Numbered from the whole stretch's first letter, positions 18,660 to 45,077 are shown. The stretch is 62,811 nt of DNA, filler included, from Nitrospinota bacterium (GCA_030620925.1; 11 parts of 11 records of this genome joined end to end with filler, not necessarily neighbours in it), one strand, 5' to 3'. The notes: generated by a model not told the origin, from the sequence alone. Made by a program: numbers and translations.

Positions 18660-18789
18660 CGGATAGGGGCTAATTACAATTAAATTATANNNNNNNNNNN
18701 NNNNNNNNNNNNNNNNNNNNNNNNNNNNNNNNNTTAATTAATTAANNNNNNNNNNNNNNNNNNNNNNNNNNNNNNNNNNNNNNNNNNNN

Positions 18790-22147: not shown

Positions 22148-22249
22148 TANNNNNNNNNNNNNNNNNNNNNNNNNNNNNNNNNNNNNNNNNNNNTTAATTA
22201 ATTAANNNNNNNNNNNNNNNNNNNNNNNNNNNNNNNNNNNNNNNNNNNN

Positions 22250-24665: not shown

Positions 24666-25928
24666 ATGAAAGAACGCGGACAGAACGGCCTATTCTACGG
24701 TTGGCGCATAGTCGGCTGGGCTTTCGCTATATACACCATCTCCTATGGGATGTCCGGCGTTTTCGGCGTATTTCTGAAGCCACTCTCGCTCGAGTTCGGC
24801 TGGACACGGGGGATGACATCTACCGCCTACTCCGTCAATCAGATAATGTTCGGCCTGTTCGCCCTGATCTCGGGATTTCTTTCAGACAGGTACGGCGTCC
24901 GCAAAGTGCTTATAGTGAACGGCGTAATATACGCCATCGGGCTGATGCTGATCAGCAAGACCTCTTCCATCTGGCACCTCTACCTCTTCTACGGAGTCAT
25001 AGCAGGGATGGGATACGGGTCGCTCGTCGTGCCCCCCGTGACGGCTGTCACCAGATGGTTCGACAAAAAACGGGGCATCGCCGTAGGCATAACACAGAGC
25101 GGGGCTGGAATCGGATGGCTCATCCTCTCCCCGCTGGCGGCATATCTTATTTACCACTACGGCTGGAGAAACTCTTACATCATCTTCGGCCTGATAGCCC
25201 TGGGCGTACTCGTCCCCTTTACCCTACTTTTCAAAGACAAGCCCTCAGACCTGGGGCTCAAAGCGTACGGTGAAGAGGCGCAGGCCGCAGCTCACATCAC
25301 GGAGCCGGACAGAGGGAACCACCTCACAGGCCGCGAGGCCATCAGGACGCGGCCCTTCTGGTTCCTCAACTCCATCCACTTCTCCGACTGTATATGCCAC
25401 TCAATAATCCTGGTACACATCGTGGCCTACCTCACTGACATCGGTTTCCATCCGGCCAGGGCCGCAAGCGTGCTGGGAGTGGTGGGTGGTGCAGCGGCGG
25501 CGGGCACCATAATCAGCGGCGCGTTGGCGGACAGAATAGGCGGCCGCGACGCATTGAGAGCCGCCCTGATGATCCAGGCGGCCATGGTCTTCCTGCTCCC
25601 CATAACCGATAATGTGTGGTTAATACATGTTACCGCTGCACTATTCGGCATGGGTATAGGCGGTCTGATCACCCCCTACCCGGTGCTCACCAGAGAATAT
25701 TTCAGTGAAGCCACGGCGGGGACCATCTACGGCGGCCTGCTAACCAGCGCTACTGCCGGCATGGCCCTGGGCGGTTACCTGGGCGGTTACCTTTTTGATA
25801 TAACCGGAGATTACGAGCTGTCATTCAAGGTAAGCCTGACTGCCGGACTGGCGGCGCTGACCCTGGGCCTGGCGCTCAGAAAACCGGCTAAAGAGCCGGA
25901 GGCATCGCCCGCTCTACAGCCCGAATAG
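24666..25928 (+). CDS. MFS transporter (OFA/MCT-like)
   Basis: FYGWRIV, GFLSDRYGVRKV, RWFDKKRGIAVG, GALADRIG. Confidence 0.93.
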   Translation: MKERGQNGLFYGWRIVGWAFAIYTISYGMSGVFGVFLKPLSLEFGWTRGMTSTAYSVNQIMFGLFALISGFLSDRYGVRKVLIVNGVIYAIGLMLISKTSSIWHLYLFYGVIAGMGYGSLVVPPVTAVTRWFDKKRGIAVGITQSGAGIGWLILSPLAAYLIYHYGWRNSYIIFGLIALGVLVPFTLLFKDKPSDLGLKAYGEEAQAAAHITEPDRGNHLTGREAIRTRPFWFLNSIHFSDCICHSIILVHIVAYLTDIGFHPARAASVLGVVGGAAAAGTIISGALADRIGGRDALRAALMIQAAMVFLLPITDNVWLIHVTAALFGMGIGGLITPYPVLTREYFSEATAGTIYGGLLTSATAGMALGGYLGGYLFDITGDYELSFKVSLTAGLAALTLGLALRKPAKEPEASPALQPE

Positions 25929-26075
25929 CTATGAGGCGTTCAATTATGAATATAAAAAGTACGACTTCCAGCGTTTCATTATATCTGCAGGGTTGAATTT
26001 CAATTGATATAATGGTATTGAACTATTTGGGAAATCAGTTTTTTTATCCGCACATTAGCCCAAAAGGAGAAAGCC

Positions 26076-27455
26076 ATGGGGGGATACGACCAGGAGTTCA
26101 TCGAATCCTTACGCGAGGGAGATTTGAACCACATCCTTCATCCATTCACTAAGCTCAAAGACCATAACCAGCAAGGCCCGCGCATCATAACCAAAGCAGA
26201 GGGCGTCAAAGTGGAAGACATCGAAGGCAACAGCTTATTCGATGGTCTTTCCGGGCTATGGAACGTGAACATCGGCCATCATCAGCTGGAGGTCGCCGAT
26301 GCCGTCAGAGAGCAGATGGGAACGCTGGAATACGCGCCCTCTTTCTTCGGCTATTCCAACATCCCCGCCATCAAGCTGGCCGAGAAAGTCGCATCGCTTC
26401 TCCCCGGCAGCCTGAACCGCGTCATGTTCACCTGCGGCGGCTCGGAATCCAACGAGAGCAATCTCAAGATGGCCCGCTACTACTTCAAACTCAAGGGGCA
26501 GCCTGAAAAGATCAAGATAGTATCCCGCAACCAGGCTTACCACGGCGTTTCCATGGGGGCGCTGAGCGCCACCGGCATACCCCTGTTCTGGGAGATGTTC
26601 GAGCCCCTTCTGCCCGGCTTCGTGCACATACCCTCCCCCTACTGCTACCGGTGCGAATTTCAGAAGGAATACCCCTCATGCGACATGGAATGCGCCCACG
26701 AGCTGGATAAAGTAATACAGGAAGAGGGGCCGGAGACGGTGGCGGCGTTCATCGCCGAGCCGGTTATAGGCGCCGGGGGCGTGATCGCACCCCCGGATGA
26801 GTATTTCCCCATCATTCGTGAAATATGCGATAAGCACGACGTGCTGTTCATAGCCGACGAGGTGATCACCGGCTTCGGACGCACGGGCAAGATGTTCGGG
26901 ATGGATAACTGGGGAGTCGTCCCCGATATGGTCTCCATCGCCAAGGGCATAACCAGCGGTTATATCCCCCTGGGGGCTGCGGTCATCAAGGATGAAATGT
27001 ACGAAACCTTCCTGGAGAAGACGCCCGAAGGGATGCCTTTCCTGCACGGCTTCACCTATAACGGCCACCCCGTGGCCTGCGCCGCAGGGCTCAAAAACAT
27101 AGAGATAATAGAGCGCGACGGCCTGGTGGAAAACGCCGCGGAAGTAGGCGCACACTTGCAGGCGCAGCTCCAGGAGCTCAGCGACGTGAGCATAGTGGGA
27201 GAAGTCAGAGGCATGGGAATGATGTCCGCCATCGAGCTGGTGGACGACAAAGAGACCAAGGAGCATTTCGAGCCCCTGGGAGCGCCCGGCCTTCAGGTGG
27301 CAAACAAGTCCTGGCAGAAAGGGCTTTTGACCAGGGCCATCGGCGATACCCTGGCCCTTGCTCCGCCCCTGACCTGTACGAAAGAGGACATCGACCAGAT
27401 TTGCAACATCTTCCGTGAATCGCTGGAAGAGACGGATAAAGAAGTGCGGGGCTGA
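26076..27455 (+). CDS. Class III PLP aminotransferase (omega-amino acid/polyamine type)
   Basis: SGLWNVNIG, GGSESNE, AYHG, FIADEVITGFGRTG, AKGITSGY, HGFTY. Confidence 0.95.
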   Translation: MGGYDQEFIESLREGDLNHILHPFTKLKDHNQQGPRIITKAEGVKVEDIEGNSLFDGLSGLWNVNIGHHQLEVADAVREQMGTLEYAPSFFGYSNIPAIKLAEKVASLLPGSLNRVMFTCGGSESNESNLKMARYYFKLKGQPEKIKIVSRNQAYHGVSMGALSATGIPLFWEMFEPLLPGFVHIPSPYCYRCEFQKEYPSCDMECAHELDKVIQEEGPETVAAFIAEPVIGAGGVIAPPDEYFPIIREICDKHDVLFIADEVITGFGRTGKMFGMDNWGVVPDMVSIAKGITSGYIPLGAAVIKDEMYETFLEKTPEGMPFLHGFTYNGHPVACAAGLKNIEIIERDGLVENAAEVGAHLQAQLQELSDVSIVGEVRGMGMMSAIELVDDKETKEHFEPLGAPGLQVANKSWQKGLLTRAIGDTLALAPPLTCTKEDIDQICNIFRESLEETDKEVRG

Positions 27456-27522
27456 TCCGGCCGGCTGCCATCTGCTCGAACTGCGCGCACAACGACAGGT
27501 CTGTGTATGGAGAGATACGTTC

Positions 27523-29115
27523 ATGTTCCGGCCCATGCTGCCCCTCGATTTCCTGAATCGCTCCAGGAGGCTTTTTCCGGATAAGACGGCGGTAGTCGAC
27601 GGCGAAACCGAACATACGTACGGTGAACTCGGTGATCGCGTGGACCGCTTCTCCAACGTCCTCCTGGACATGGGAATAAAAAAGGGGGACAAGGTTGCCA
27701 TCCTTTCCCCCAACACCCGCCACATGCTGGAATCCTTCTTCTCCGTGCCCCAGACGGGCGCCATCCTCGTCCCTCTCAACTACAGGCTCAACCCCGATGA
27801 GCTGAGCTACATCATAAACCACTCCGACAGCAAGATCGTCCTGGTGGACTACGAATACGCGCCGCTCCTGGAATCCGCGGCCGGTGAGCTTAAAAAGGTG
27901 GAAAAATATATTCTCACCGGCGACGGCGATTACGGGGGCGGACTCACCATTGTGAAATACGAAGACCTGCTCGAGGACGCATCCGCTGAGCCGCCGCCAG
28001 ACGCTGGACTGGAGGAGACGGACCTCGCCACCATCAACTATACCAGCGGCACCACGGCCAACCCCAAAGGCGTGATGCTCAGCCACAGGGCTTGCTACCT
28101 CAACGCCTGCGACTATCTCATCCACCTGCGCGTGGTCTATCAAGACGTATACCTCCACACACTGCCCATGTTCCACGCCAACGGATGGGGCGGTATCTGG
28201 GCCCTGGCAGCCATAGGCGGCACGCAGATATGCCTGCGAAAAGTTGAGGCGCAGCCCATTTACGAGTATCTGCAGAACAGAGAGGTTACCCTGGCCTGCT
28301 GCGCACCCACGGTGCTGGTCACATTGGCCAGCTACGAAGGGGCCGGGGATTACAAGCTCGCCGACGGTATCCGCATGGGCACCGGCGGCGCGGCGCCCCC
28401 GGCGGCGGTGCTAAAAAACATGGAGCAGTTTGGAGTGGAGGTCATCCACCTCTACGGCCTCACCGAAACCGGCCCCCTCCTCACCACCTGCGTCTGGAAA
28501 CCCGAATGGGACGAACTGCCCCTGGAGGAGCGCTACCGCCTCAAGGCCCGCCAGGGGGTCTCCCAGGTGCTGACGGACGTGAGGGTCATGGACGAAAACA
28601 TGGCCGAAGTCCCCAACGACGGGAAGACCATCGGCGAAATAGTTGCCCGGGGCAACACGATCATGGAGGGCTACTACAAGCAGGAGGATGAGACGGCCCG
28701 TGCCTTCGAAGGCGGCTGGTTCCACAGCGGTGACCTGGCGGTGGTGCACCCCGACAACTATATCGAAATCATGGACCGCAAGAAGGACGTCATCATCAGC
28801 GGTGGTGAGAACATATCCTCAGTGGAAGTGGAAAACATGCTCTACCAGCATCCCGCCGTCCTGGAAGCGGCGGTGGTGGGAGTTCCCGACGAGAAGTGGG
28901 GCGAGGCCCCCAGAGCGCTGGTGGTGCTGCGGGAGGGCAAGAAAGCCGGTGAGGATGAGCTGATAAAATTCTGCCACGAAAAAATGGCCCACTTCAAAGC
29001 CCCAAAGTCCGTCGTCTTCATCGACGAGCTGCCCAAGACGGCCACCGGCAAAGTCCAAAAATTCGCCCTCCGCGATAAATACTGGGAAGGCAGAGATAAA
29101 CGCGTCCACGGCTGA
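27523..29115 (+). CDS. Acyl-CoA synthetase (AMP-forming)
   Basis: YTSGTTANPKG, YGLTET, FHSGD, DRKKD..ISGGENI, PKTATGK. Confidence 0.95.
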   Translation: MFRPMLPLDFLNRSRRLFPDKTAVVDGETEHTYGELGDRVDRFSNVLLDMGIKKGDKVAILSPNTRHMLESFFSVPQTGAILVPLNYRLNPDELSYIINHSDSKIVLVDYEYAPLLESAAGELKKVEKYILTGDGDYGGGLTIVKYEDLLEDASAEPPPDAGLEETDLATINYTSGTTANPKGVMLSHRACYLNACDYLIHLRVVYQDVYLHTLPMFHANGWGGIWALAAIGGTQICLRKVEAQPIYEYLQNREVTLACCAPTVLVTLASYEGAGDYKLADGIRMGTGGAAPPAAVLKNMEQFGVEVIHLYGLTETGPLLTTCVWKPEWDELPLEERYRLKARQGVSQVLTDVRVMDENMAEVPNDGKTIGEIVARGNTIMEGYYKQEDETARAFEGGWFHSGDLAVVHPDNYIEIMDRKKDVIISGGENISSVEVENMLYQHPAVLEAAVVGVPDEKWGEAPRALVVLREGKKAGEDELIKFCHEKMAHFKAPKSVVFIDELPKTATGKVQKFALRDKYWEGRDKRVHG

Positions 29116-29298
29116 TTGCCTGAACCGGGAAGGTTTATCCTTCGGAGTGAACCCTTTCGACGTTTTTGATGACACCNNNNNNNNNNNNNNNNNNNNNNNN
29201 NNNNNNNNNNNNNNNNNNNNTTAATTAATTAANNNNNNNNNNNNNNNNNNNNNNNNNNNNNNNNNNNNNNNNNNNNACATATCGAGGAGACTGAATGA

Positions 29299-30303
29299 GT
29301 GCCCTCTTTTCAGAAAAGAATTACTATAATAGTACTGCTCCTGGTAATTATAGTTTCGGCGGGCACCATCGGCTACCGGATTATGGGATGGACTTTGCTG
29401 GATGCCGTTTTCATGACGGTCATCACCCTGACCACGGTGGGTTACGAAGAAGTGCATACCCTCTCGGAAGGAGGCAAAGTATTCACCATCTTTCTGATAT
29501 TATCCGGCCTTGGTGTCCTTTTTTACGGGATAACTAATATCACGGCGTTTATAGTAGAAGGCGAGTTGACAGATATCCTGACAAGGAGAAAGATGGAAAA
29601 GGCCGTATCGAAATTAAAAGATCACTTCATAGTTTGCGGGCTGGGCAAGACGGGGAAGCACGTCATCGAAGAGCTGATTAAGAATGAGTCTAAGTTCGTA
29701 GCCATCGAAAAGGGCATGGACAAGATAGAAGAAGCCAGGAGGATGGGAGATATCTTGTGCGTCCACGGGGATGCAACGAAAAACGAAACTTTGCTCGATG
29801 CCAACATAGAGCACGCCGGTGGCCTGGTTACCACGCTGCCCGCGGACAGTGAAAACCTGTTCGTGGTCCTCTCCGCCAGAGAGATGAATCCCGACCTGCG
29901 AATAGTTAGCAGGGTAATCGAGGAAGACGCCGAGCATAAGCTCTACAAGGTCGGCGCCAACTCGGTTGTTTCCACCGATTACATCAGCGGCCTGAGAATG
30001 GCCTCCGAGCTTATAAGGCCGTCAGTCGTCTCTTTCCTGGACTTGATGTTCAGAGACTCGAGCAGGACCCTGCGGGTGAGCGAGATGGATATCCCTGATA
30101 AATCCAAGATGTCGGGGATTACCATACAGGATGCGGAATTGAGGGAGAAGGCGGGGGTACTGGTTCTGGCTATAAGGAGGAAGGGGGAAAAAGATTTCAT
30201 TTACGGCCCCTCCGCCCGCGAAAAAATTCAGGAGGGTGATACGCTCATCCTCCTGGGGGATTTAGACCAGTTGAGAACGCTTGAAGAGCTTTTTAAGCCG
30301 TGA
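29299..30303 (+). CDS. 2-TM potassium channel with RCK domains (MthK/Kch-like)
   Basis: Selectivity filter TTVGY, HFIVCGLGKTG, TrkA_C domain. Confidence 0.93.
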   Translation: MPSFQKRITIIVLLLVIIVSAGTIGYRIMGWTLLDAVFMTVITLTTVGYEEVHTLSEGGKVFTIFLILSGLGVLFYGITNITAFIVEGELTDILTRRKMEKAVSKLKDHFIVCGLGKTGKHVIEELIKNESKFVAIEKGMDKIEEARRMGDILCVHGDATKNETLLDANIEHAGGLVTTLPADSENLFVVLSAREMNPDLRIVSRVIEEDAEHKLYKVGANSVVSTDYISGLRMASELIRPSVVSFLDLMFRDSSRTLRVSEMDIPDKSKMSGITIQDAELREKAGVLVLAIRRKGEKDFIYGPSAREKIQEGDTLILLGDLDQLRTLEELFKP

Positions 30304-30386
30304 TGGTTCTGAATGCGGTTTACCTTGATTTAGGGAGACAGCAATTCTCTGATCTTACACACCGTATTTCATAAGGAGGTATACCC

Positions 30387-32030
30387 ATGGCGGGCAAGTC
30401 GAATGAACAAGAAAAGCGAGCCCCGGTCGACGGAGCGCCCGGAAGCCTGAAGACGATTTCGGGAGTGCCTCTGAAACCGGTCTATACAGAAGAGGATTTA
30501 AAGGATTTCGATCCCGGGAAGGATTTGGGAGCTCCCGGCGAGTATCCTTACACGCGGGGTGTTCACAGGGATATGTACCGTAAACGGAACTGGACTTACA
30601 GGCTCTATGCCGGTTACGGTCAGGGCGAGGATACCAATGAGCGTTTCAAGTTCCTGCTGAACAACGGCCAGACAGGGCTGAGCATGGCCCTCGATCTGCC
30701 CACCCAGTTGGGGCTCGATTCTGATGATCCCAAATCCTACGGCGAGGTGGGGAGGGTAGGGGTGGCCATCGACTCCCTGAAGGATATGGAGCACATTTAT
30801 GAAGATATATCACTGGACGGCATCAGCACCTCCTTTACCATAAACGCTACCTCCAACATATTGCTGGCGATGTATCTGGCGGTGGCCGAAAATCAGGGTG
30901 TCCCGCAAGAAAAGGTGAGGGGAACCGTTCAGAACGACATACTCAAAGAATACCTGGCCCGGGGCACGTATATCTTTCCGCCCAAACCGTCCATTCGCCT
31001 CATCGGAGACACCGTTGAGTATTGCCTGAAGCATGTTCCCAAATTCAATGCAGTGAACGTGGCCGCCAGCCACATGCGCTCCGCCGGCGCCACCTACATT
31101 CAATCAACGGCCTACATGTTCCTTAACGCCATGGAATATACAAAGGAGGTGCTCAGACGGGGTTACTCCGTAGACGACTTTGCCAGCAACATCTCTTTTC
31201 TATCCGGTGCCAACAGCGACTTTTTCGAGACCGTCGCCAGGCTGCGGGCTTCCCGCCGGCTGTGGGCGCGGTTGATGAAGGAAAGGTTCGAGGCCAAAGA
31301 AGCCAAATCCACCATGTTCAGAGTGGCCACCGGCGGCGACTGCCTGAGTATGACAATGGAGCAGCCCATCGTAAACGTTGCCCGCATAACCCTCCAGGCC
31401 CTCTCAAACGTCTTCGGGGGGACACAATCCATGCTGCTCCCTGCATACGATGAAGCCTACGCCATACCCACCGAGGAATCCGCCCGCGTATCGCTGCGCA
31501 TCCAGCAGGTGCTTTCCAACGAAGCGGGGGTCACCAACGTGGTGGACCCGCTGGCCGGCTCCTACTTCGTGGAATCGCTGACTTCCCAGGTGGAGAAAGA
31601 GATAGTGGCCGTCATGGAGAAGATGGAGGAGAGCGGCGGAATGGTTAACGCCATCGAGAACGGGAGCATACAGCGTCAAATGGCCCGACAGGCCGTAGAG
31701 ATGCAGAGGGAGTGGGATGAGGGCCATCGGCCTCTGGTGGGGCATAACTGCTACACCGTGGAAGAGAGCATAGAAGATTACGAGGCCGAGATGTTCACCA
31801 TGGAACCGGAGGTTTACAACCGGCAGGTGGAGCGACTCAAAGAAATCCGAGCCTCACGGGACAACGCACTGGTGAATCAGAAGCTGGATGCCCTGCGCGG
31901 TGCCGCTCAGGGGACGGAGAACACCTTGCCCTATCTTATAGAGGCCATTAAAGCTTATGCCACGGTAGGCGAGATTACCACCGTTCTTAAGGAAGTCTTC
32001 GGCGAATATCGTCAGCCCACTGCGCTCTGA
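30387..32030 (+). CDS. B12-dependent acyl-CoA mutase large (substrate-binding) subunit, divergent
   Basis: PGEYPYTRG, WTYRLYAG, DLPTQLGLDSD, QNDILKEY, DEA, DPLAGSY, ATVGEI; no DxHxxG B12 domain. Confidence 0.93.
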   Translation: MAGKSNEQEKRAPVDGAPGSLKTISGVPLKPVYTEEDLKDFDPGKDLGAPGEYPYTRGVHRDMYRKRNWTYRLYAGYGQGEDTNERFKFLLNNGQTGLSMALDLPTQLGLDSDDPKSYGEVGRVGVAIDSLKDMEHIYEDISLDGISTSFTINATSNILLAMYLAVAENQGVPQEKVRGTVQNDILKEYLARGTYIFPPKPSIRLIGDTVEYCLKHVPKFNAVNVAASHMRSAGATYIQSTAYMFLNAMEYTKEVLRRGYSVDDFASNISFLSGANSDFFETVARLRASRRLWARLMKERFEAKEAKSTMFRVATGGDCLSMTMEQPIVNVARITLQALSNVFGGTQSMLLPAYDEAYAIPTEESARVSLRIQQVLSNEAGVTNVVDPLAGSYFVESLTSQVEKEIVAVMEKMEESGGMVNAIENGSIQRQMARQAVEMQREWDEGHRPLVGHNCYTVEESIEDYEAEMFTMEPEVYNRQVERLKEIRASRDNALVNQKLDALRGAAQGTENTLPYLIEAIKAYATVGEITTVLKEVFGEYRQPTAL

Positions 32031-32173
32031 CAAAAGCGGCCGATGATCCCCGTACACAGCGGGGAGTAAACTATTTTATTAAGTTAATAGGGCGCCCCGC
32101 GGCATAGGGGCAGCCGCACCGGAAGTCCCGCCTGCGGCGGAAAATAGTAGATATAGTAGATGAGGTATTGCCT

Positions 32174-33364
32174 ATGAAGGGACCATTGGCAGGAGTGAAA
32201 GTGCTGGACTTGACCCGGGCGCTGGCCGGTCCTTATGGCTCTATGATACTTGGCGATCTGGGGGCGGATATAATCAAGGTGGAGGGGCCGGATGGTGATT
32301 TCACCCGAAAGGTGCCCCCTCACTTCCATATGGGCCAGAGCATGTATTTCATATCCATGAATCGAAGCAAGAAGAGCGTAGGCATAGACCTTAAAAGCGA
32401 AGGGGGGAGGGAGGTCTTTTATCGGTTGACCGAGCACGCCGACGTAGTCTTCGATAATTTCAGAGGCGGCGTTACAGCCAAGCTGAAGCTGGACTATAAA
32501 ACCCTCAAAGCCGTTAACCCCCGGATAATAACGTGCTCACTGTCGGGCTACGGCAGCAAAGGGCCCCTTGCCGATCAGCCCGCCTACGATCTTCCAATAC
32601 AAGCCTTCAGCGGCGGAATGAGCATCACCGGCGAACCGGGGAGACCCCCCGTAAGGGCGGGCATACCCATTTCCGACCTGTGCGCCGGAATGTTCGCCGC
32701 CCACGGCATAATGGCCGCCCTCTACGCCAGGGAAAAAACGGGGGAAGGGCAGCCTGTGGAAGTTTCTCTGATGAGCGGCCAGATAGGCATGCTGGCCTAC
32801 ATGGCGGGATACTACTTCAAGTCGGGCCAGATACCCGGCCCCGTCGGTTCGGGCCATCAGACCACCGTCCCCTACGGGGCTTTTAAGACCACCGACGGAT
32901 GGATAGCCTTCTCCGGCGGCCAGGACCAGTTCTGGCCCAAGCTGTGCCGGGCGATAGGAATGGAGGAGATGGCGTCCGACGAGAAATTCCGTGATAAGAA
33001 AAACCGCCAGGAAAACCGGGACGTGCTCTACGAAATATTGAGCGAGAAGTTCGCCCAAAAGAGCACCGAGGAATGGTTGAAAATAATGATGGATTACGAT
33101 ATACCCGCCTCCCCCGTCCATAACCTTGAGCAGGCCCTTAACCATCCCCAGGTGCTGGCCAATAATATGGTGCTCGACCTCACGCCCCCCGAGGGGCCGC
33201 CCATAAAGGTTGCGGGAAACCCCATAAAGATGCCCTCGATTCCTGATAAGGATTATGCCTATCCGCCTCTTTTAGGCCAGCACACCGATGAAATCCTCAC
33301 CTCGCTGCTGGGTTATTCCTCAGAGCGGATTGCGAAACTGAGAGAAGAGGGAGTAATTTTTTAA
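32174..33364 (+). CDS. Family III CoA-transferase (CaiB/BaiF)
   Basis: VLDLTRALAGP, NRSKKS, SGYG, ISD catalytic Asp, PLLGQHT. Confidence 0.95.
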   Translation: MKGPLAGVKVLDLTRALAGPYGSMILGDLGADIIKVEGPDGDFTRKVPPHFHMGQSMYFISMNRSKKSVGIDLKSEGGREVFYRLTEHADVVFDNFRGGVTAKLKLDYKTLKAVNPRIITCSLSGYGSKGPLADQPAYDLPIQAFSGGMSITGEPGRPPVRAGIPISDLCAGMFAAHGIMAALYAREKTGEGQPVEVSLMSGQIGMLAYMAGYYFKSGQIPGPVGSGHQTTVPYGAFKTTDGWIAFSGGQDQFWPKLCRAIGMEEMASDEKFRDKKNRQENRDVLYEILSEKFAQKSTEEWLKIMMDYDIPASPVHNLEQALNHPQVLANNMVLDLTPPEGPPIKVAGNPIKMPSIPDKDYAYPPLLGQHTDEILTSLLGYSSERIAKLREEGVIF

Positions 33365-33427
33365 TACTAGACCTGATGCACGACTCTGTGCTGTCTCTCA
33401 GTCGGCATTTATTGAAATATTATAATC

Positions 33428-33563
33428 GCAGGAGCGGCATCTTGGCGCGATTGCCAGCATTATCTTAACCGTAACCCGGGTTTGTCGCTCGGTTGCGATT
33501 CGCGCCTGGAATGCGCTCCTACAGTATGAAAACGTATAATCGAGTGCGGCGGGATGCCGCTCC
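33428..33563. repeat. Cluster of GTAG-type REP-like palindromes
   Basis: gcaggagcggcatcttggcgcgat (33428), inverted tcgcgcctggaatgcgctcctaca (33500), gcggcgggatgccgctcc (33546), between convergent genes. Confidence 0.7.
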
Positions 33564-33576
33564 ATCCCGTAGTCTT

Positions 33577-35019
33577 TTACTGTCGCCAGTAGGTGGCGGT
33601 GAAGAGCACCAGGACCGTATAAATCTCAAGCCTCCCCATGAGCATGCACACAATCAGCACCCATTTCCCCAGGATCGGTATATGGGCGTAGTCGTGGGTG
33701 GGCCCTACCAGCCCGAAGCCGGGGCCTATATTCCCCAGCGTGGCCGCCACCGAGCCCAGAGAGGTGACGATGTCGTACCCTAAGCCGGCCATTATCAGGG
33801 AAGCCAGCAGGAAGGTGCCCGTATAAACGAGGAAAAACGCCATGGCGCCGTGTATGACCTCAGAGGGCACGGGTTTCCCGCTGATTTTCATGCTGATGAC
33901 CGCCTTGGGGTGCACCAGCCGGGAAAGCTCATAGTAGCTCTGCTTGATGAACATAAGCATGCGTCCCTGTTTCATGGCGCCCCCGGTGGAGCCCGCACAA
34001 CCGCCCATGAAGATCAGTATGAACAGCACCAGCCTGGATAAAAACGGCCATTGTTCGTAGTTCGCCGTCCCGTAGCCGGTGGTCGTAGTCATACTGATCA
34101 CCTGGAATATGGAATACCTGAAAGCTTTGGATAGTGAACCGTAGATGTCGATCCTCGTCTGCACGGTGATGATCAGGGTGGCCACCAAAAGCACGGTGAC
34201 ATAAAAAAGAAACTCGCTGTCCCTGAAATAAGCTGTCGGTTTTCCCCTGATGGCGCTGTAATGCAGCACGAAATTAACGCCCGCCAGGAACATGAAGACG
34301 GTGATGACTGTATCCACGTAGGCGCTATTATATGCTCCGATGCTGGTCGCCTTCGTGGAGAAGCCTCCGGTGGCCATGGTGGTGAAGGCGTGAGACACCG
34401 CCTCGTACAGCGAAACGTCGCCCAGGTAGAGGAGCACCACCTCGGCGGCGGAGAATATGAGGTAGGTCACCCACAGCAGCCTGGCGGTCTCCTTGATGCG
34501 GGGGCTGAGCCTGTCGGGGGTGGGGCCGGGGACTTCGGCCCTGAATATCTGCATCCCTCCCACACCCAGCGTGGGCAGAATAGCAAGAGAGAGGACGATG
34601 ATCCCCATCCCCCCCAGCCACTGGATAAGGCTGCGCCATAGCAGGATGCCGTGGGGTTGGGCTTCTATGTTGGTGAGTACCGTAGCCCCCGTGGTTGTGA
34701 AACCGGACATGGATTCGAAAACGGCGTCGGTAAAACCACCGAAGGAGCCGTAAAATAGAAAGGGGAGGCTCCCGAAGAACGCCGCCGAAACCCACCCCAG
34801 CGTTACCACGGCGAAAGCCTCTCTGGTGCCCATTTCGCCGGGGGATCTGGACAGCAAGACGAAGGCCAACCCGACGGAGACGGTCAGGAGAGAAGAATAG
34901 AGGAAGGAGTTGGCGTCGCCTTCTCCGAAGTAGATCGAGACTCCCAGGGGGGCCAGCATGCAAAGGCCCACGGCGGCTATGAGCGCGCCGATGATATAGA
35001 GGATGACCCTTAAGTTCAC
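33577..35019 (-). CDS. trkH: Trk K+ uptake membrane subunit
   Basis: FESMSGFTTTG, QWLGGMG, ATGGFS, TTTGY, GGCAGSTGG, LGNIGPG, GRLE. Confidence 0.96.
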   Translation of the reverse strand: MNLRVILYIIGALIAAVGLCMLAPLGVSIYFGEGDANSFLYSSLLTVSVGLAFVLLSRSPGEMGTREAFAVVTLGWVSAAFFGSLPFLFYGSFGGFTDAVFESMSGFTTTGATVLTNIEAQPHGILLWRSLIQWLGGMGIIVLSLAILPTLGVGGMQIFRAEVPGPTPDRLSPRIKETARLLWVTYLIFSAAEVVLLYLGDVSLYEAVSHAFTTMATGGFSTKATSIGAYNSAYVDTVITVFMFLAGVNFVLHYSAIRGKPTAYFRDSEFLFYVTVLLVATLIITVQTRIDIYGSLSKAFRYSIFQVISMTTTTGYGTANYEQWPFLSRLVLFILIFMGGCAGSTGGAMKQGRMLMFIKQSYYELSRLVHPKAVISMKISGKPVPSEVIHGAMAFFLVYTGTFLLASLIMAGLGYDIVTSLGSVAATLGNIGPGFGLVGPTHDYAHIPILGKWVLIVCMLMGRLEIYTVLVLFTATYWRQ

Positions 35020-35037
35020 GTTGTGCTTTCGAGGAAT

Positions 35038-36378
35038 TTAGCTATCGAATAGGTCTTCTACTTTCTTCAACTGGTCAGGCAGCGTGAGAATGATGACCCT
35101 GTCATCGGGCATAATGACATCTTCGCCATGGGGGATGATGACTTTTTCCCCCCGAACGATGGCCCCGATAAGAGAACCCCGGGGGACCTTTAAATCCTTT
35201 ATCGGCGTGCCCACGCATTTGGAAGTAGGGGATGCTGCTATCTCCACGGTTTCAGCCTTATCTTCGAGCAGCGTTGCCATGGACAATATTTTGGTTTTGC
35301 GGATCAGCTTCAGGATGAAGTCAGACGTGAGCTGCATGGGGTTAATGGGCACGTCGATCCCCAACGAAGAGGCCAGGGGGACGAACTCCTCGTCGGTGAT
35401 GAGGCAGATGGACTTTTGGACATTGTTCTGCTTGGCCAACAGCGCGGCAAGGAGGTTGACTTCGTTCTGGTCGGTGGCGGACACAAAAGTGTGTGTGTTC
35501 ATTATGCCCTCCTGCATGAGCAGTTTCCTGTCTTTGCCGTCGCCGTTGAGCACCAGCGTTTTCTTCAGATGTTCCGATAAAAAATTGCACCTCTTGAGGT
35601 CTCTTTCGATGAGGGTAACGTTGAGGTTATCTTCATCCAGCCTTTGCGCTATGTTGAAGCCCACCCTTCCTCCACCCACGATGACTATCTTCCGGGTTTC
35701 GTCCGGTTTATCCTTGTTAACCAGGCGGAGAACTTTTTTCAGCGACTCGTCCTTGGTTATCACGAACAGCTTATCACCGGCCAGCACGTGGTCCTCTCCG
35801 GAGGGAATTATAGGAGTGTCGTTTCGGATTATGGCGGCCACCCGAAAAGAGGGTATGTTGGGAATCTCGCTCAGTTTGTTATGGGCTATGGGGGCTTCAC
35901 TGGTAATCTTGAACCCCATCAGCTTTATCTTGCCTTCAGCAAACTCATACCAATCGGTCAAGCCGGGGGTTTTGGCTATCTGCGCTATTTCCTGTGCCAC
36001 GAGGCGGTTGGGGTTGATAGCGTGATCAACGCCCAGCCTTTCAAGGGGAATAGAGAAGTCTTTAGTAGTGAACTCTTGTTCACGGATGCGGGCCACGGTG
36101 ATGGGAACGCCGCACTCCTTGGCTATCAGGCAGGCCAGGATGTTCTTTTCGTCCATCTCGGTGACCGCAAGAACCATGTCTGCATCTCTTACACCCACGG
36201 CATCCAGCACGGTCAGATTTGTGCCGCTGGCCTTGAAGGTCTGAACGTCCATCTCTTCCATCGCGCGGCGAATAACCTCTTCCCGCTCGTCGACGATGAC
36301 TACCTCGACACCCTCTTTTACCAGGTTGAGGGCCAGGTTGAAGCCCACAACGCCTGCGCCTATAACGATAACCTTCAC
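35038..36378 (-). CDS. trkA: Trk K+ uptake NAD-binding subunit (tandem RCK)
   Basis: IGAGVVG and VGGGRVG Rossmann motifs, about 450 aa, upstream of trkH. Confidence 0.95.
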   Translation of the reverse strand: MKVIVIGAGVVGFNLALNLVKEGVEVVIVDEREEVIRRAMEEMDVQTFKASGTNLTVLDAVGVRDADMVLAVTEMDEKNILACLIAKECGVPITVARIREQEFTTKDFSIPLERLGVDHAINPNRLVAQEIAQIAKTPGLTDWYEFAEGKIKLMGFKITSEAPIAHNKLSEIPNIPSFRVAAIIRNDTPIIPSGEDHVLAGDKLFVITKDESLKKVLRLVNKDKPDETRKIVIVGGGRVGFNIAQRLDEDNLNVTLIERDLKRCNFLSEHLKKTLVLNGDGKDRKLLMQEGIMNTHTFVSATDQNEVNLLAALLAKQNNVQKSICLITDEEFVPLASSLGIDVPINPMQLTSDFILKLIRKTKILSMATLLEDKAETVEIAASPTSKCVGTPIKDLKVPRGSLIGAIVRGEKVIIPHGEDVIMPDDRVIILTLPDQLKKVEDLFDS

Positions 36379-36584
36379 TCTAAGGTCTCCCAAAAATATT
36401 AAAAGACTTTCGCCCTTCCGGCCAAAGTCCGATTCGTTTCATCAATTTATATATAGTTCTCTTAGTATCAATAAGCTATTATACACAATCCGGGCGGTCA
36501 AGCATAGTATGAGAGGTGTTGCGCCATGATTTTTAAGAGGGATAAAAAGTTTTCCCGGGGCGCTGTAACGCAGGGGGGAGAAAG

Positions 36585-36924
36585 ATGAAGGCGGCGGTTT
36601 TAAGGGGCTTAAGAGATATTGTATGCGAGGAAGTTCCTGATCCACAGCCGGGGCCGGGTGAAGTTCTGATTAAGGTCCGTTACTGCGGTATTTGCGGCTC
36701 CGATATACATGGTTACAGAGAAGGTCTTTTCCCGCCGGGCACGGTTATGGGGCACGAGTTTTCGGGTGATGTGGTTGAGGTGGGGTCGGGGGTGGAAAAT
36801 ATAAGCGTTGGTGAAAAAGCAACGGTGAACCCCGCGAACCCGTGCGGTGAATGCCGATGGTGCAGGAATGGGCGGTATTCACTCTGCCCCACGGGGATGG
36901 CCGCGGGGATAGGCTTGAGCGACT
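36585..36924 (+). CDS. Zn-dependent alcohol dehydrogenase (3'-truncated)
   Basis: GICGSD, GHEFSG, CGECRWC...C. Confidence 0.93.
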
Positions 36925-37024
36925 NNNNNNNNNNNNNNNNNNNNNNNNNNNNNNNNNNNNNNNNNNNNTTAATTAATTAANNNNNNNNNNNNNNNNNNNN
37001 NNNNNNNNNNNNNNNNNNNNNNNN

Positions 37025-39611: not shown

Positions 39612-39711
39612 NNNNNNNNNNNNNNNNNNNNNNNNNNNNNNNNNNNNNNNNNNNNTTAATTAATTAANNNNNNNNNNNNNNNNNNNNNNNNNNNNNNNNN
39701 NNNNNNNNNNN

Positions 39712-40547: not shown

Positions 40548-41756
40548 TCACTCGTAATCGAGTATGCCTTCCTTGCGCAGGCTCTCTATTTCGCCCTCCT
40601 GGTAGCCCAGTTCATTGAGCAGCTCGTCGTTATGCTGGCCCAGCAGGGGTGTGGGAGCCTTGGGGCCGCCGGGGGTTTTGGAGAATTTCACCGGATGCCC
40701 GATGGTCCACATCTTGCCAGCTTTGGGGTGTTCCAGAGAGCAGATGATGTCTCCCTGGCGGAGGTTGGGGTCGTTGAAGATATCGTGATAATCGTAGACC
40801 GGGCAGCAGAACACGTCCACCTCTTCCAGGGCCTCCGTCCATTCTTTTAAGGTTTTGGTTTTGAACACCTCTTCGAGCCGCGTACGGAGAAACTCCTGGT
40901 TTTCCCGCCGCCCTTCGGGCGTGTCGAACCTGGGGTCCTCGATCAGCTCGTCCAGGCCCAGGGCCTGGCAGAAGCCGGGCCAGCGTTTATCGCCCAGGCT
41001 GATGACCGCCATGTAGCTGTCCTGCGCCTGGTAGACCTGGTATAAGACGTTGCTGGCGATGCCGTGGCTCATGCCGCCTTTTTTAACCGGCTCCTTTGAG
41101 TTGAGGTAGGCGGTCATCTCCCAGGTCTGCAAGGATATCTGTCCCTCCAACAGAGAGACGAAAATCTCCTGCCCCACGCCGGACTTTTCCCTGGCGTAGA
41201 GGGCCATCATTATCCCGTAAGCTGAAAGGAATGAACCCACCTGATCGGCGATGGCCGCCCCCACGGGCATTGGCGGGCCGCCGGGCATACCGGTTGCGGC
41301 CATGACCCCTCCCATGGCCTGGGCCATCAGGTCCATGCCCGGTTTGCGGGCGTAGGGGCCGCTGGGGCCGTAGTTGGATATGGAACAGTAGATGATGTCA
41401 GGATTGATTTTGGACAGGTTGTCGTAGCCCAGTTTGAAACTGTCCATAACTCCCGGCCGGAAATTCTGGACGGCCACGTCCGCTTTCTCCGCCAGCTTGT
41501 AAATGACCTCCCGTCCTTTCTCCTCGCGGTATTCGATGGCCAGGCTCTTCTTGTTCCTGTTGAGGGCCAGGAAGTAAGGGTTTTGTCCGTTGAGGTCGGT
41601 AGGCAGTATGGATGGCGCAAGCCTGGTCATCTCCCCCGGCGGCCGCTCAATCTTGATGACCTCGGCGCCCATATCCGAGAGCATCACGGTCGCGTAAGGG
41701 CCGGCCTGGAACTGCGAAAAATCCAGGATGCGTATCCCTTCCAGCGGTAGGTTCAT
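40548..41756 (-). CDS. Family III CoA-transferase (CaiB/BaiF)
   Basis: ILDFSQFQAGP, NRNKKS, NFRPG, IAD, PLLGQHN. Confidence 0.95.
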   Translation of the reverse strand: MNLPLEGIRILDFSQFQAGPYATVMLSDMGAEVIKIERPPGEMTRLAPSILPTDLNGQNPYFLALNRNKKSLAIEYREEKGREVIYKLAEKADVAVQNFRPGVMDSFKLGYDNLSKINPDIIYCSISNYGPSGPYARKPGMDLMAQAMGGVMAATGMPGGPPMPVGAAIADQVGSFLSAYGIMMALYAREKSGVGQEIFVSLLEGQISLQTWEMTAYLNSKEPVKKGGMSHGIASNVLYQVYQAQDSYMAVISLGDKRWPGFCQALGLDELIEDPRFDTPEGRRENQEFLRTRLEEVFKTKTLKEWTEALEEVDVFCCPVYDYHDIFNDPNLRQGDIICSLEHPKAGKMWTIGHPVKFSKTPGGPKAPTPLLGQHNDELLNELGYQEGEIESLRKEGILDYE

Positions 41757-41907: not shown

Positions 41908-44900
41908 TCAATCCCTCTGGCGCAGCCTCCGCTCCCATTTTACGTCCCCCAGAATGGAATAGAGGGCGGGGATAAAAAAGAGGGTGAGTAAGCTGGCGAA
42001 AGCCAGTCCCCAGATGATGGAGTTGGCCATCGGCCCCCAGACGTTGGATTTACCCCCTACCCCCAGGGCCATGGGCAGGAGTCCGAAAATGGTGGTTATG
42101 GTGGTGAGCATGATGGGGCGCATCCTTATCACACCCGATTTGACGATGGCCCTCCATTTGGACGTTCCGGTGTCTCTGCGCGTGTTTATGAAGTCCACCA
42201 GGATGAGGGAATCGTTGACCACGATGCCCGTCAGCCCCACCACTGCTATGAAAGCCACCAGGCTGAAAGGGTCTCCGTTCACCAGCAGGCCTATGATGAC
42301 CCCGATAAAGGAGAAGGGCACGGTGAACATTATGACCAGCGGCTGTATGAAGGATTTGAATTGTGCGCCCAGTATCATGTAGATGACCAGTATGGCCACG
42401 AAGAACGCCCTGGTTAAGCTGGCGAACGATTCGCTGGTCTTGGTGTACTCGCCGCCCAGGGTAAAACGATAGGCCGGATATTTTACGCTCCATTTCCCCA
42501 GCTTCTTCTCCAGTATCTTATTCACCTTGCTGGAGCTGGTCACTTCTTTATCTATGTCAGCGGTAACGGAGGTGGTGCTTTCATTATCCCGCCGATAGAG
42601 ATTAGCGAATCCTCGCTCTATGTGGTAGTCGGCAAGGTTCTTGAAGTACACCAGGCTGCCGTCCATGGTGACTACTCGAAGGCGGTCCAGGTCGGAAAGG
42701 GTGTCCCTGTCACTCTCCTTGAACTTCACCACGATGTCTATTTCCTCGCCGCCTTCACGGTAGACCGAGGCCACCGCCCCGTCGAAAGCGGTGCGCAGGT
42801 TCCAGGCCAGCTCGGAATGGGTGAGGCCCCAGAGTGCGGCCTGGTCGTCTTTGAGTTTGACTCTGATTTCGTTCTTTCCCATTTCAAGGTCGTTCTTTAT
42901 GTCTTTGACGCCTTTTATCCTGCGCAGTTGAGCTTCAATTTCATGGACCGCTTCCCCTATTTTTTCGTCCGGCTCTCCCCTGACGCGCACCGCCACCGGC
43001 TTGCCCATCGGCGGCCCCTGGGCCACCTCGGCTATCTCCACCGATTTTATCCCGCTTATCCTGGCCACCTTCTTCCTCAAATCATCCATTATCTCCTGGG
43101 TGGTGCGGCTCCTTTCTTTTGCTTCCACCAGGTCTATCATGACCTCCCCTACGTTAGAGCCGCGCTCCACGCCGAAATCGCCTATGATGATTCCCGTGCG
43201 GGAGAGGACTGCGGTCACCTCACTGCGGGGGAGGTTCATGGCCAGCTCTTCTATCTTTCCGATGATCTTGTCCGTGTTTTCCAGGGAGTATCTGGCGGGG
43301 GTGTGCACCCGCACGCTGAACTGGGAGACCTCATCGAAGCGGAACAGCTCGATGCCCAGAAAGGGGATTAACAACAACCCTGAGGCGGCTATAACGGGGA
43401 CCACCGCCACCACCAGGAACCTGTGCTTGAGCACCTTGAAGATGATTCGTTTGTAAAATTTTTCCATCAGCCGTATGAATTTGTCTCCGGGCGGGGGCCT
43501 GCGGGTGACCTTTCCGAAATCCGCCATGTGGCAGGGGAGCACGATGAACGCCTCTATGAGGGAGGCGGCCAGGGCGAAAGCCACCATCATGGGGATAAAG
43601 CTGAGGTATTTCCCCACGATCCCGGTCATTAACAGCATGGGAAGGAAGGCCGCTATGGTGGTGAGCACTGTGGCGATTACCGGCAGAGTGACCTCTTCGC
43701 CGCCTTTAATGGCTGCTTTAATCGGGGAAAGCCCCTGCTCCATGTAGCGGTAAATGTTCTCCACAATGACGATGGCGTCGTCCACCACTATCCCCAGAAC
43801 AAGAACCAGGCTGAACAGGGTGACCTGGTTGAAAGTAAGGCCCACCCAGTCCATGAAAACGAAGGTGGTCAAAAAGGTAAAAGGAATGCCGATGCCCACC
43901 AGGAGAGCGCTCCTGCCCCCCAGGAACAGAAATAGTATGATGGAGACCAGGGAAACGCCGATGAGGGCGTTGCTCTTGAGGCGGTTCATTATTTCATTGA
44001 TGTGGAAGGTGGTGTCGTTGACGTAGGCGACGTCCACCCTGGTGGGAAGGGTATTCAGATATTCTCCGACGACCCTCTTGATGTCTCTGACTATGCGGAT
44101 GGATTCCCCGCCGCGCTCCTTAAGGATGAGTAGGGAAATAGCCGGTTTTTGCCCCAGCCGGGAGATAGTCTCGGGCTCTTCGAAGGTGTCCCGGACGAGG
44201 GCCAGGTCTCTCACCTTGATATGTTTTCCACCCGGGTCCGCTTTGACAATGATCTCTCTTATCTGCTCCGGTTTCTCCACCTCTCCCACCGCCCTGATCA
44301 GGTATTCGCTGCGACCCACTTCGATGTCTCCCCCGGGCACGTTCAGGTTGCGCTTGGCGATGCTGTCCACCACGTGGCGGAGCCCCATGTTGTAGCCGTA
44401 GAGCTTGCGGGAGTCCACTTCCACCCATATTTCCCTGTCTCGTATCCCGGCCAGCTCGACTTCGTCCACACCCTTGATCGCTTCGATGACGTCTTCCAGG
44501 TCTTCAGCTACTTTTTTGAGTTCTTTTTCGGAGAGCTGGTCGCTGCTTATGATGGCGTTGACGATGGGGAAATCGCTGGTGTTGAGCTCTATAACTTCGG
44601 GGTCGTCCTTTATCCCTTCGGGGAGGTCTTTCACCTTGTCCACTTCCGATTCCAGCTCGCGCACCGCTTCCTTGAAGTCCTTCAAGTCTGTCCTGAATTC
44701 CACGAAGATGGTGGATACGTTTTCGGCGGATGTGGAGATGACTCTGTTTATCCCGTCTACGTCTTTGATTTCATCCTCGATGGGGATGGTGACCAGTTTT
44801 TCGACCTCTTCGGGGGCGGCGCCGGGGTATTTGGTGATGATGACGGCTGATTCCAGGGAAACCTCAGGGTCCAACTCGGTGGGGAGGGAAAAATAGGCGT

Positions 44901-44979: not shown

Positions 44980-45077
44980 GCACATCACCAAAAAATCGGC
45001 CAGGGCGGCATCCCTGGCCTACTCAATATTTATTTCTCCGGCGTGAGCGGAGAAGGGCGCACCGCGCCGACGCAGGC

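Follow-up and report, generated by a model that had tools for sequence, protein, structure and literature searches.

A split acyl-CoA mutase subunit with a distinct, conserved substrate pocket beside a family III CoA-transferase in a Nitrospinota bacterium

Results

A mutase large subunit and a CoA-transferase lie side by side

We analyzed 62,811 nucleotides of DNA from a Nitrospinota bacterium (GCA_030620925.1), hereafter the window, in which two plus-strand genes at 30387-33364 encode the large subunit of an acyl-coenzyme A (CoA) mutase (P0001) and a family III CoA-transferase (P0131). An earlier interpretation made from the sequence alone (the sequence-only reading) had recognized here a stand-alone mutase large subunit that lacks a B12 domain and is followed by a CaiB/BaiF gene, and both the open reading frames (ORFs) and the profile matches agreed with this. 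P0001 aligned to PF01642 over the entire profile (positions 1-512 of 512; E-value, 3.7e-189; 630 bits versus a cut-off of 22.1) and scored 633.9 bits with TIGR00641 (cut-off, 303.8), and its ORF ended at 32030 without a B12-binding domain; it is a complete and intact acyl-CoA mutase large subunit. P0131 matched PF02515 from position 1 to 366 of 366 (E-value, 3.5e-131). The ATG at 32174 was a likelier start for the transferase than the TTG at 32168, which gives the longest ORF, with a GAGG 8 nt upstream and a database gene call of 396 aa in agreement.

Among solved structures, HcmA (4r3u; E-value, 1e-145) was closest to P0001, followed by human and bacterial methylmalonyl-CoA mutase (MCM). With NF006944, the NCBIfam equivalog of MCM, P0001 scored 537 bits and so remained below the cut-off of 876, a shortfall that is partly explained by architecture because NF006944 models the fused form. 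Its matches in the ESM Atlas were generic "methylmalonyl-CoA mutase family" clusters only. The solved relatives of P0131 were a formyl-CoA transferase (10uh; E-value, 2e-89) and the human succinate-hydroxymethylglutarate CoA-transferase SUGCT (9br6; E-value, 4e-86), with a benzylsuccinate CoA-transferase subunit being more distant (E-value, 1e-45). The Asp in its segment GIPISD, which we take to be the catalytic residue, aligned with Asp in both 10uh and SUGCT. All seven matches of P0131 to NCBIfam equivalogs stayed below the cut-off, the best being NF052585 (316.7 versus 750 bits); the equivalogs not reached were those of succinate-glutarate, succinyl-CoA:mesaconate, oxalate, formyl-CoA, and carnitine transferases.

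The mutase carries a rare and conserved pocket signature

Residue calls were made from a HMMER alignment of P0001 to the P. shermanii MCM 1REQ_A, in which the chain index plus 1 gives the literature numbering. Tyr89 (Y74 in P0001), Arg207 (R192), His244 (H229), and Glu370 (E356) were kept, whereas Y243S, Q246R, E247S, F287L, H328A, Q330G, and N366P were changed. The sequence-only reading had named the same four retained residues and six of these substitutions (Y243S, E247S, F287L, H328A, Q330G, and N366P), and every call was reproduced. Four of the changes (Y243S, F287L, H328A, and Q330G) brought in smaller residues and were accompanied by E247S and N366P; an Asp (residue 318) and an Arg (residue 231) were introduced as well. 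By analogy with MCM structures, the altered positions presumably line the substrate cavity, and we take Tyr243, Glu247, Phe287, His328, Gln330, and Asn366 to be the positions that define specificity.

The pocket was condensed into a signature of ten alignment columns (89, 207, 243, 244, 247, 287, 328, 330, 366, and 370). It reads YRYHEFHQNE, the canonical form, in the P. shermanii, human, and M. tuberculosis MCMs and YRSHSLAGPE, designated type A, in P0001, which is altered at 6 of the 10 positions (to S, S, L, A, G, and P). A survey of 312 sequences, composed of 193 distinct sequences from loci and 119 of the best 120 database matches and therefore biased toward the query, yielded 49 signatures. 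The canonical one occurred 113 times and was spread from Archaea to Bacillota, YRTHEHSGPE (type E) occurred 82 times, and YRSHSLAGPE was found 4 times.

Within types, the pocket residues hardly varied. YRSHSLAGPE was identical in all four full-length type A members, which are 80-96% identical, and the motifs of the query were present in all close relatives. The nearest type, B (YRAHSL[FH]GPE; 55-58% identical), has E247S, F287L, Q330G, and N366P in common with type A, and in both types Gly-Gly-Asp replaces Gln-Thr-Ser (330-332), with Arg at 246 in type A. In a nine-sequence alignment of the two types (55-58% identity to the query), S232, L272, G316, G317, D318, and P352 were invariant, and other pocket types were equally fixed, as in the 82 sequences of type E. 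Because the substitutions are fixed within types, they appear to have been selected. Unconserved decay, which the sequence-only reading had named as an observation that would speak against its proposal, was thus not found.

Close relatives of P0001 were few. Among 5.8 billion proteins, three were full-length, at 96, 81, and 80%, a further one was a fragment of 80% identity, and the next match had 57%. Relatives in the same collection of TrkA, encoded on the same contig as the pair, were 78 and 75% identical, followed by 42%, and those of the transferase were 82, 80, 75, and 74% identical, followed by 56%. Because TrkA and the transferase show the same pattern as the mutase, poor sampling of the lineage is the probable reason why the signature is rare, and type A may represent the form that an A/B subfamily takes in this organism's lineage. 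Searching genome contigs for type A/B loci with the type A/B alignment returned only ordinary split MCMs of up to 55% identity. With P0001 as the query, identities did not exceed 50% in metagenome contigs or 56% in 401 genomes from the phylum of genome G001, for each of which the top three candidates were scored; TrkA had no match in 401 genomes at an overly strict E-value limit of 1e-150. Parts of the 2978-bp stretch (30387-33364) were nevertheless found in 20 sequencing runs of 12 studies, the labeled ones being marine sediment, sediment, marine, and cold-seep metagenomes, and no RNA runs were listed among them. Contigs from four runs of four studies covered the contig of the pair piecewise with few differences (779 nt with 7; 251 nt with 1), and the source sample may be among these four runs. 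The lineage is widespread yet hardly sampled.

The mutase belongs to a clade of altered-pocket split mutases

Maximum-likelihood trees of 85 and 86 representatives were inferred (quick search, LG+G4, support by the Shimodaira-Hasegawa-like approximate likelihood-ratio test [SH-aLRT]), with at most 3-8 rows per signature; three very long rows were dropped from the tree that contained HcmA and Xaut_5043. The root was arbitrary and long branches were present. P0001 fell inside a 50-row clade (SH-aLRT, 99) whose members all keep Tyr89 and Arg207 and are altered at 328/330, with every canonical or Phe/Gln-type row, HcmA, and Xaut_5043 on the opposite side of the tree. The four type A rows (support, 99-100) grouped with P0047 and type B (10 rows; support, 95-98). 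Two mutases from gene contexts like that of the iaa operon described below (L170 and L046) were within the same 50-row clade, on a separate branch.

Reference genes for HcmA, Xaut_5043, a Streptomyces canus copy, and the Methylobacterium bullatum copies were taken from a plasmid collection. HcmA of Methylibium petroleiphilum (L221) had the signature IQYHEFHQNE, as did its X. autotrophicus homolog; Xaut_5043 of X. autotrophicus, presumably a pivalyl-CoA mutase, had LNQHQFHQDE, and the S. canus plasmid copy was canonical. That isobutyryl-, 2-hydroxyisobutyryl-, and pivalyl-CoA mutases replace Tyr89, as had been pointed out before, agreed with Ile in HcmA, Leu in Xaut_5043, and Phe in the Phe/Gln types, which we take to be isobutyryl-CoA mutases. 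P0001 showed none of these clamp replacements (Phe/Gln, Ile/Gln, or Leu/Asn), since it keeps Tyr and Arg. HcmA, its best solved relative, and Xaut_5043 resemble it in split architecture and in the length of the large subunit. In both, however, the clamp is changed while His328 and Gln330 are kept, the reverse of the query, and position 366 is Asn in HcmA, Asp in Xaut_5043, and Pro in the query. Both also fall opposite the query in the tree and are accompanied by an AMP ligase and MeaB, but not by CaiB.

Ethylmalonyl-CoA mutase (ECM) was reportedly described by Erb et al. in 2008. In M. bullatum, we infer ECM to be the third mutase homolog (L256), which is neither the MCM alpha-like nor the divergent copy; it had the signature YRYHEFGQPE, with H328G and N366P as its only changes, and was fused to a DxHxxG domain. 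This agreed with the former statement that ECM alters H328 and has N366P. The presumptive ECM is like the query in keeping Tyr89, Arg207, His244, and Glu370, in its small residue at 328, and in N366P within an LP motif. It differs in its fused B12 domain and its identity of 37%, and it keeps Y243, E247, F287, and Q330, so that the query has four further changes beyond the two at 328 and 366. The divergent M. bullatum copy lacked the catalytic residues and the DxHxxG motif and is probably MCM beta. The M. bullatum record (NZ_LR743510.1; 2.8 Mb) is filed as "plasmid 1" with one annotated feature and carries chromosomal-type genes (MCM alpha, MCM beta, and the presumptive ECM).

Taken against canonical MCM, HcmA, Xaut_5043, the Phe/Gln type, the presumptive ECM, and the iaa-context mutases, the residue combination of P0001 matches none of these types, in line with what the sequence-only reading had maintained, and in the phylogeny the protein stands outside the canonical MCM, Phe/Gln-type, HcmA, and Xaut_5043 rows, in a clade of altered-pocket split mutases.

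Altered-pocket mutases recur beside cognate CoA-transferases

A CaiB-like gene was present within 10 kb in 8 of the first 159 loci, which were mostly those of canonical split MCMs. Adjacency was then counted where both flanks of a locus measured 1.3 kb or more, scoring a same-strand CaiB gene within 600 nt. Such a gene accompanied 9 of 31 altered-pocket mutases, none of 93 mutases that keep His328 and Gln330 (including none of the 78 whose signature is exactly canonical), and none of 16 without the Tyr/Arg clamp. Mutases of the YRYHEIHQCE type, whose CaiB lies slightly beyond 600 nt, were unpaired in this count and paired in the two analyses that follow. In five genomes searched in full, CaiB was found in the locus of 12 of 29 mutase copies, with canonical copies contributing 0 of 4. 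In a tree of 28 mutase-adjacent CaiB proteins (some rows being the same gene twice), the proteins grouped by the pocket signature of the partner mutase and not by genome, and the genomes G319, G343, G176, and G391 each appeared in several CaiB clades with supports of 96-100. Since the CaiB proteins group by partner pocket type, the mutase-CaiB pair appears to be a cognate module and an old unit. The conservation of the pairing, which the sequence-only reading had suggested testing, held in that pairs recur beside altered pockets and CaiB co-diversifies with the pocket type of its partner.

The same bin contained a second pair on another contig, consisting of a family III CoA-transferase and a fragment of an altered-pocket mutase of type D (Table 1), whose full-length relatives are P0012, P0018, and P0019. 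On that minus strand the order is an HlyD-type adaptor (45078-46349), an AcrB-type resistance-nodulation-division pump (41908-44991), CaiB, and the type D mutase.

These data bear on the question of whether the two genes of the query pair are neighbors without a common pathway, or whether the mutase subunit is an inactive orphan relic, which we consider very improbable. The 143-nt spacer implies that there is no translational coupling, no small subunit is found nearby, and the flanking K+ transport genes are unrelated, all of which would suit such an explanation. However, both ORFs are intact and have good ribosome-binding sites, catalytic residues are retained in both proteins, pairs of the same kind recur with a CaiB tree that tracks the mutase type, and near-identical copies occur in runs from several studies. 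Moreover, other pairs (L198-L200 and L204) have no adjacent small subunit, like the query, and its supply in trans therefore seems normal. The query pair is one of many such modules.

Gene sets around sister modules

Type E loci (L191, L192, and L193 in genomes G354, G378, and G319) comprised CaiB, the mutase, a B12 small subunit, a carboxyl transferase, and a glyoxalase-family (epimerase-like) protein, and one of them stood beside a PrpR-type regulator. A canonical MCM was present alongside type E in 4 of 5 genomes. Type F had the gene set of type E plus MmgE/PrpD and an acyl-CoA dehydrogenase. The neighbors of the sister types make up the gene set expected for the conversion of a substituted succinate to a substituted malonyl-CoA and on to an acyl-CoA. 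Mutase copies were numerous: the pocket types numbered 20 or more, and single genomes held as many as 16-18 copies, as in G343 (16 PF01642 matches, 12 of them with open frames of at least 500 aa) and G001 (18 matches to P0001). First-look counts of mutase candidates reached 35 in G245 and G273.

The type E loci raise the question of whether P0001 is an ordinary MCM, converting succinyl-CoA to methylmalonyl-CoA, of an unusual lineage, with the transferase acting as a succinate/propionate CoA-transferase of the methylmalonyl-CoA pathway. Such an enzyme would retain Tyr89, Arg207, His244, and Glu370, as P0001 does; the related type E sits in CaiB-mutase-B12-carboxyl transferase-epimerase clusters beside a PrpR-type regulator; the solved relatives of the transferase include succinate-hydroxymethylglutarate CoA-transferase; and in a deep, poorly sampled lineage odd residues could be lineage drift. 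Yet the canonical signature is maintained across Archaea to Bacillota (113 of 312 sequences), whereas the query differs at 6 of 10 positions, and the altered positions are fixed within types instead of drifting. Furthermore, 4 of 5 type E genomes also carry a canonical copy, and CaiB was beside canonical mutases in 0 of 78 and 0 of 4 cases. An ordinary MCM is therefore an improbable identity for P0001. Type E itself could be either a second, odd MCM or an unrecognized, widespread rearrangement in sediment bacteria.

Comparison with proposed transferase-mutase modules

The iaa operon of Aromatoleum aromaticum, which serves anaerobic indoleacetate degradation, encodes the phenylsuccinyl-CoA transferase IaaL and the B12 mutase IaaGH, which interconverts (2-aminophenyl)succinyl-CoA and (2-aminobenzyl)malonyl-CoA; IaaL activates phenylsuccinate with succinyl-CoA and also moves CoA between both carboxyl groups, and the iaa proteins named in the excerpted source are IaaL, IaaGH, IaaF, IaaB, and IaaM (PMC8360864). 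Like the query pair, IaaL and IaaGH combine a family III CoA-transferase with a split B12 mutase, here for a bulky 2-substituted succinate. In our collection, mutases with the signature YRYHEN[LI]GCE stood in iaa-like contexts (L046 and L201). L046 (1363-15454), from a metagenome-assembled genome of an uncultured Eubacteriales bacterium (Bacillota), held a three-subunit molybdenum (Mo) hydroxylase, CaiB, an old-yellow-enzyme-type reductase, an epimerase-like protein, a B12 subunit, a mutase with YRYHENIGCE, and hydantoinase A and B. L201, where no CaiB was found, held an acyl-CoA dehydrogenase, MaoC, a short-chain dehydrogenase/reductase, a DUF35-type protein, a thiolase, and a B12 subunit. 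We take hydantoinase-like proteins and Mo enzymes to be members of the iaa pathway. Although the iaa-context mutases share the altered-pocket clade with the query, their signature differs from its YRSHSLAGPE, a comparison made with mutases from such contexts, and the CaiB of L046 is 28% identical to the transferase of the window. The contig of the query is short, and genes of the IaaF-type dehydrogenase, hydantoinase-like, Mo-enzyme, or CoA ligase kind were found neither there nor in the window.

An hcmAB-like split mutase that occurs with argK/MeaB in the ass loci of Desulfatibacillum AK-01 and Smithella is a candidate for the rearrangement of alkylsuccinyl-CoA, with an activity that, according to the excerpted source, was never biochemically demonstrated (PMC13685792). 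This mutase is split, of the same general kind as P0001, and proposed for a substituted succinyl-CoA, and MmgE/PrpD, a carboxyl transferase, and MeaB, as in the ass loci, are also found beside sister types of the query. The locus L194, with MeaB, a mutase, a B12 subunit, two MmgE/PrpD genes, and an AMP ligase, matches the gene set reported for ass islands (PMC13685792, in excerpt); it differs from the query in its signature (YRGHGLFVCE), its separate branch, and the AMP ligase in place of CaiB. The partner genes of the ass loci were absent from the query contig: no alkylsuccinate synthase, MmgE/PrpD, carboxyl transferase, or argK/MeaB gene was found on the 7.6-kb contig or in the window.

In actinonin and matlystatin biosynthesis, ActD and MatB+MatQ are proposed to convert (2R)-hexylmalonyl-CoA to 2-pentylsuccinyl-CoA (PMC5719088). 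They are split mutases of the 2-hydroxyisobutyryl-CoA mutase (HCM) subclass proposed for long-chain alkylmalonyl/alkylsuccinyl-CoA, and in the actinonin cluster the large subunit stands alone, as at the query locus, with the small subunit encoded elsewhere (PMC5719088). They differ in being biosynthetic and actinomycete and in being linked, in the excerpted description, to a crotonyl-CoA carboxylase/reductase and an epimerase rather than to a CoA-transferase; their support there is genetic and from labeling only, and they are set apart from the query by their published description.

Thus, the sequence-only reading's view that a transferase-mutase scheme of this kind would be new could not be upheld, since IaaL with IaaGH has been described (PMC8360864) and a scheme of this sort has been proposed for alkylsuccinate loci (PMC13685792). 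The literature on mutase-CaiB pairing as a general phenomenon yielded the iaa, ass, and actinonin cases and no description of many cognate types.

These precedents also raise the alternative that P0001 is the ortholog of a mutase already proposed, be it IaaGH, the ass/mas alkylsuccinyl-CoA mutase, ECM, or the hexylmalonyl-CoA mutase MatB/ActD, in which case its mechanism would be the one that we propose below. The type of module is that of IaaL and IaaGH (PMC8360864), split HCM-like mutases are present in ass loci (PMC13685792) and as ActD/MatB (PMC5719088), the cold-seep and marine-sediment habitat makes hydrocarbon adducts plausible, and N366P and a small residue at 328 are common to the query and the presumptive ECM. 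However, the iaa-context mutases (YRYHEN[LI]GCE) and the ass-island-like L194 (YRGHGLFVCE) occupy separate branches, and the presumptive ECM is a fused protein of 37% identity in which Y243, E247, F287, and Q330 are retained; this comparison drew on contexts and the presumptive ECM and did not include the sequences of Aromatoleum IaaG, the AK-01 mutase, MatB/ActD, or R. sphaeroides Ecm. Furthermore, neither the contig nor the window held iaa, ass, MmgE/PrpD, or crotonyl-CoA carboxylase/reductase genes. We regard such orthology as unlikely.

The contig of the pair and other genes of the window

The window consists of 11 contigs chained via 10 spacers of N44 + 12 nt + N44, and several of its genes are cut at contig joints. 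Because the contigs are merely chained, gene neighborhood across any spacer is uninformative, and genes beyond 29277-36924, the true contig of the pair (7648 bp, which is also the length on record for the contig of P0001 and P0131), are unlinked to it. The gene order on this contig is K+ channel, mutase, transferase, the convergent trkH and trkA, and a truncated alcohol dehydrogenase (Table 1), and the 7.6-kb contig offers no clue to the substrate. The sole B12-domain match across the window was the B12 domain of MetH. No Rfam family was found in the window and hence no cobalamin riboswitch, and a consensus scan for promoters and terminators gave counts equal to the shuffle expectation.

A major facilitator superfamily (MFS) transporter of lactate/oxalate-formate type, a class III aminotransferase, and an acyl-CoA synthetase lie upstream on one strand at 24666-29115, and were ruled out as pathway genes of the pair because they are on another contig (22250-29176). 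The ORFs of the aminotransferase and the synthetase overlap by 41 nt, and the three genes may be a catabolic operon of omega-amino-acid or beta-alanine type. A third family III CoA-transferase at 5443-6417 is cut at its contig start (profile positions 66-366) and is followed by a 789-aa protein with multiheme cytochrome c motifs (6666-9035).

Table 1. Positions of the features discussed, counted from the first letter of the window
Feature	Position	Strand	Remarks
Ribosome-binding site AAGGAGG	30373..30379	+	7 nt 5' of the mutase ATG, read from the sequence
Acyl-CoA mutase large (substrate-binding, triosephosphate isomerase [TIM]-barrel) subunit P0001, 547 aa	30387..32030	+	PF01642, TIGR00641
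Tyr74 codon (= P. shermanii Tyr89, carboxylate clamp, kept)	30606..30608	+	1REQ_A alignment
Arg192 codon (= Arg207, carboxylate clamp, kept)	30960..30962	+	1REQ_A alignment
AASHMRS, residues 226-232 (Y243S, Q246R, E247S; His244 kept)	31062..31082	+	identical in P0003-P0005 and fragment P0009
SFL, residues 270-272 (F287L)	31194..31202	+	S270, F271, L272 invariant in the type A/B alignment
ATGGDC, residues 314-319 (H328A, Q330G, new Asp at 318)	31326..31343	+	G316, G317, D318 invariant across types A and B
MLLPAYDE, residues 349-356 (N366P; Glu370 kept)	31431..31454	+	LP at the equivalent site in the presumptive M. bullatum ECM
Mutase-transferase spacer, 143 nt	32031..32173	+	no terminator-like site called
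Family III (CaiB/BaiF/Frc-type) CoA-transferase P0131, 396 aa	32174..33364	+	PF02515
Terminator-like hairpin	33549..33570	+	between CaiB and convergent trkH; consensus scan only, total for the region not above shuffle expectation
K+ channel gene	29299-30303		contig 29277-36924
trkA	35038-36393		same contig as the pair
Type D altered-pocket mutase, N-terminal 238 aa (SVPHIKQ), cut by contig end	39712..40427	-	58% identical to P0001
Second family III CoA-transferase, same bin	40548..41756	-	other contig, 39% identical to P0131
Spacers between contigs	5343-5442, 9568-9667, 14900-14999, 18690-18789, 22150-22249, 29177-29276, 36925-37024, 39612-39711, 50592-50691, 55830-55929		

Discussion

We propose that P0001 is part of a split mutase that depends on adenosylcobalamin and acts on a bulky substituted succinyl- or malonyl-CoA; this mutase would be fed by the cognate neighboring transferase and would receive its small subunit in trans. 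Judged from sequence comparison, we put the probability of this reading at roughly 0.58. P0001 would serve as the catalytic large subunit and would depend on a B12-binding subunit of ~135 aa from a gene of its own and probably also on a chaperone of the MeaB type. The free carboxylate would be held by the Tyr89/Arg207 clamp, with His244 and the ribose-binding Glu370 retained. Because the clamp, His244, and Glu370 are kept, an MCM-type 1,2 shift on a dicarboxyl-CoA of malonyl or succinyl type would be expected, and because six signature residues are altered, the substrate is most likely a 2-substituted succinyl-CoA or the matching malonyl-CoA, bulkier than ethylmalonyl-CoA. The transferase would activate the free substituted succinate, with succinyl-CoA as the probable CoA donor, and may also shift CoA between the carboxyls to give the isomer that the mutase accepts; either of these IaaL-like roles would fit P0131, and the two genes may be co-transcribed. 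The sequence-only reading had likewise suggested that the transferase activates a bulky dicarboxylate and the mutase rearranges it. The recurrence of the pairing and the co-diversification of CaiB speak for this scheme, whereas its originality does not stand, the scheme being already described for iaa and proposed for ass loci.

Several observations weigh against our proposal. The abundant type E sits with exactly the partners of the methylmalonyl-CoA pathway, which means that a changed pocket does not by itself imply a new substrate. The association of CaiB with altered pockets (Fisher's exact p = 1.4e-6) is uncorrected for kinship, and some of the altered loci had been chosen for likeness to the query. 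The pairing was not confirmed in close homologs, whose contigs are short and differ in length from those with CaiB homologs; neither genome nor metagenome contigs yielded related loci above 55% identity to the query. Among the contigs from sequencing runs, none bridged both genes with at least 31 nt on each side, one of them reaching only 8 nt into CaiB. Finally, a B12 small subunit, MeaB, an epimerase, and a carboxyl transferase were absent from both the 7.6-kb contig and the 62.8-kb window, and the genes that are linked to the pair, for the K+ channel and TrkH/TrkA, concern K+ transport and are uninformative on the pathway.

Whatever its substrate, the locus represents a separate and conserved version of the pocket, and it belongs to an extensive radiation of such modules that has hardly been studied. 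A wider view, which we put forward tentatively and with some doubt, is that types A and B form a subfamily rearranging a class of substituted succinyl-CoA not yet described for B12 mutases, perhaps with a polar or charged substituent, and that the locus is the tip of a large unrecognized set of cognate CoA-transferase/mutase modules in anaerobic sediment bacteria, each for a different branched or adduct-type dicarboxylate.

To our knowledge, only about seven substrate specificities of B12-dependent acyl-CoA mutases are known. These enzymes are valued for carbon-skeleton rearrangements that are hardly achievable chemically, and the anaerobic breakdown of substituted succinates, such as hydrocarbon-fumarate adducts and compounds formed when aromatic rings are opened, requires such a rearrangement. 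The locus and its sister modules suggest that sediment bacteria have a much larger repertoire of rearrangements, each with its own CoA-loading enzyme. The radiation of modules as a whole is of more interest than this single locus, which by itself gives no clue to the substrate; if the substrate of type A were found, however, a new reaction would be added to those known, and the gene could serve as a new marker of a degradation route in cold seeps and marine sediments.

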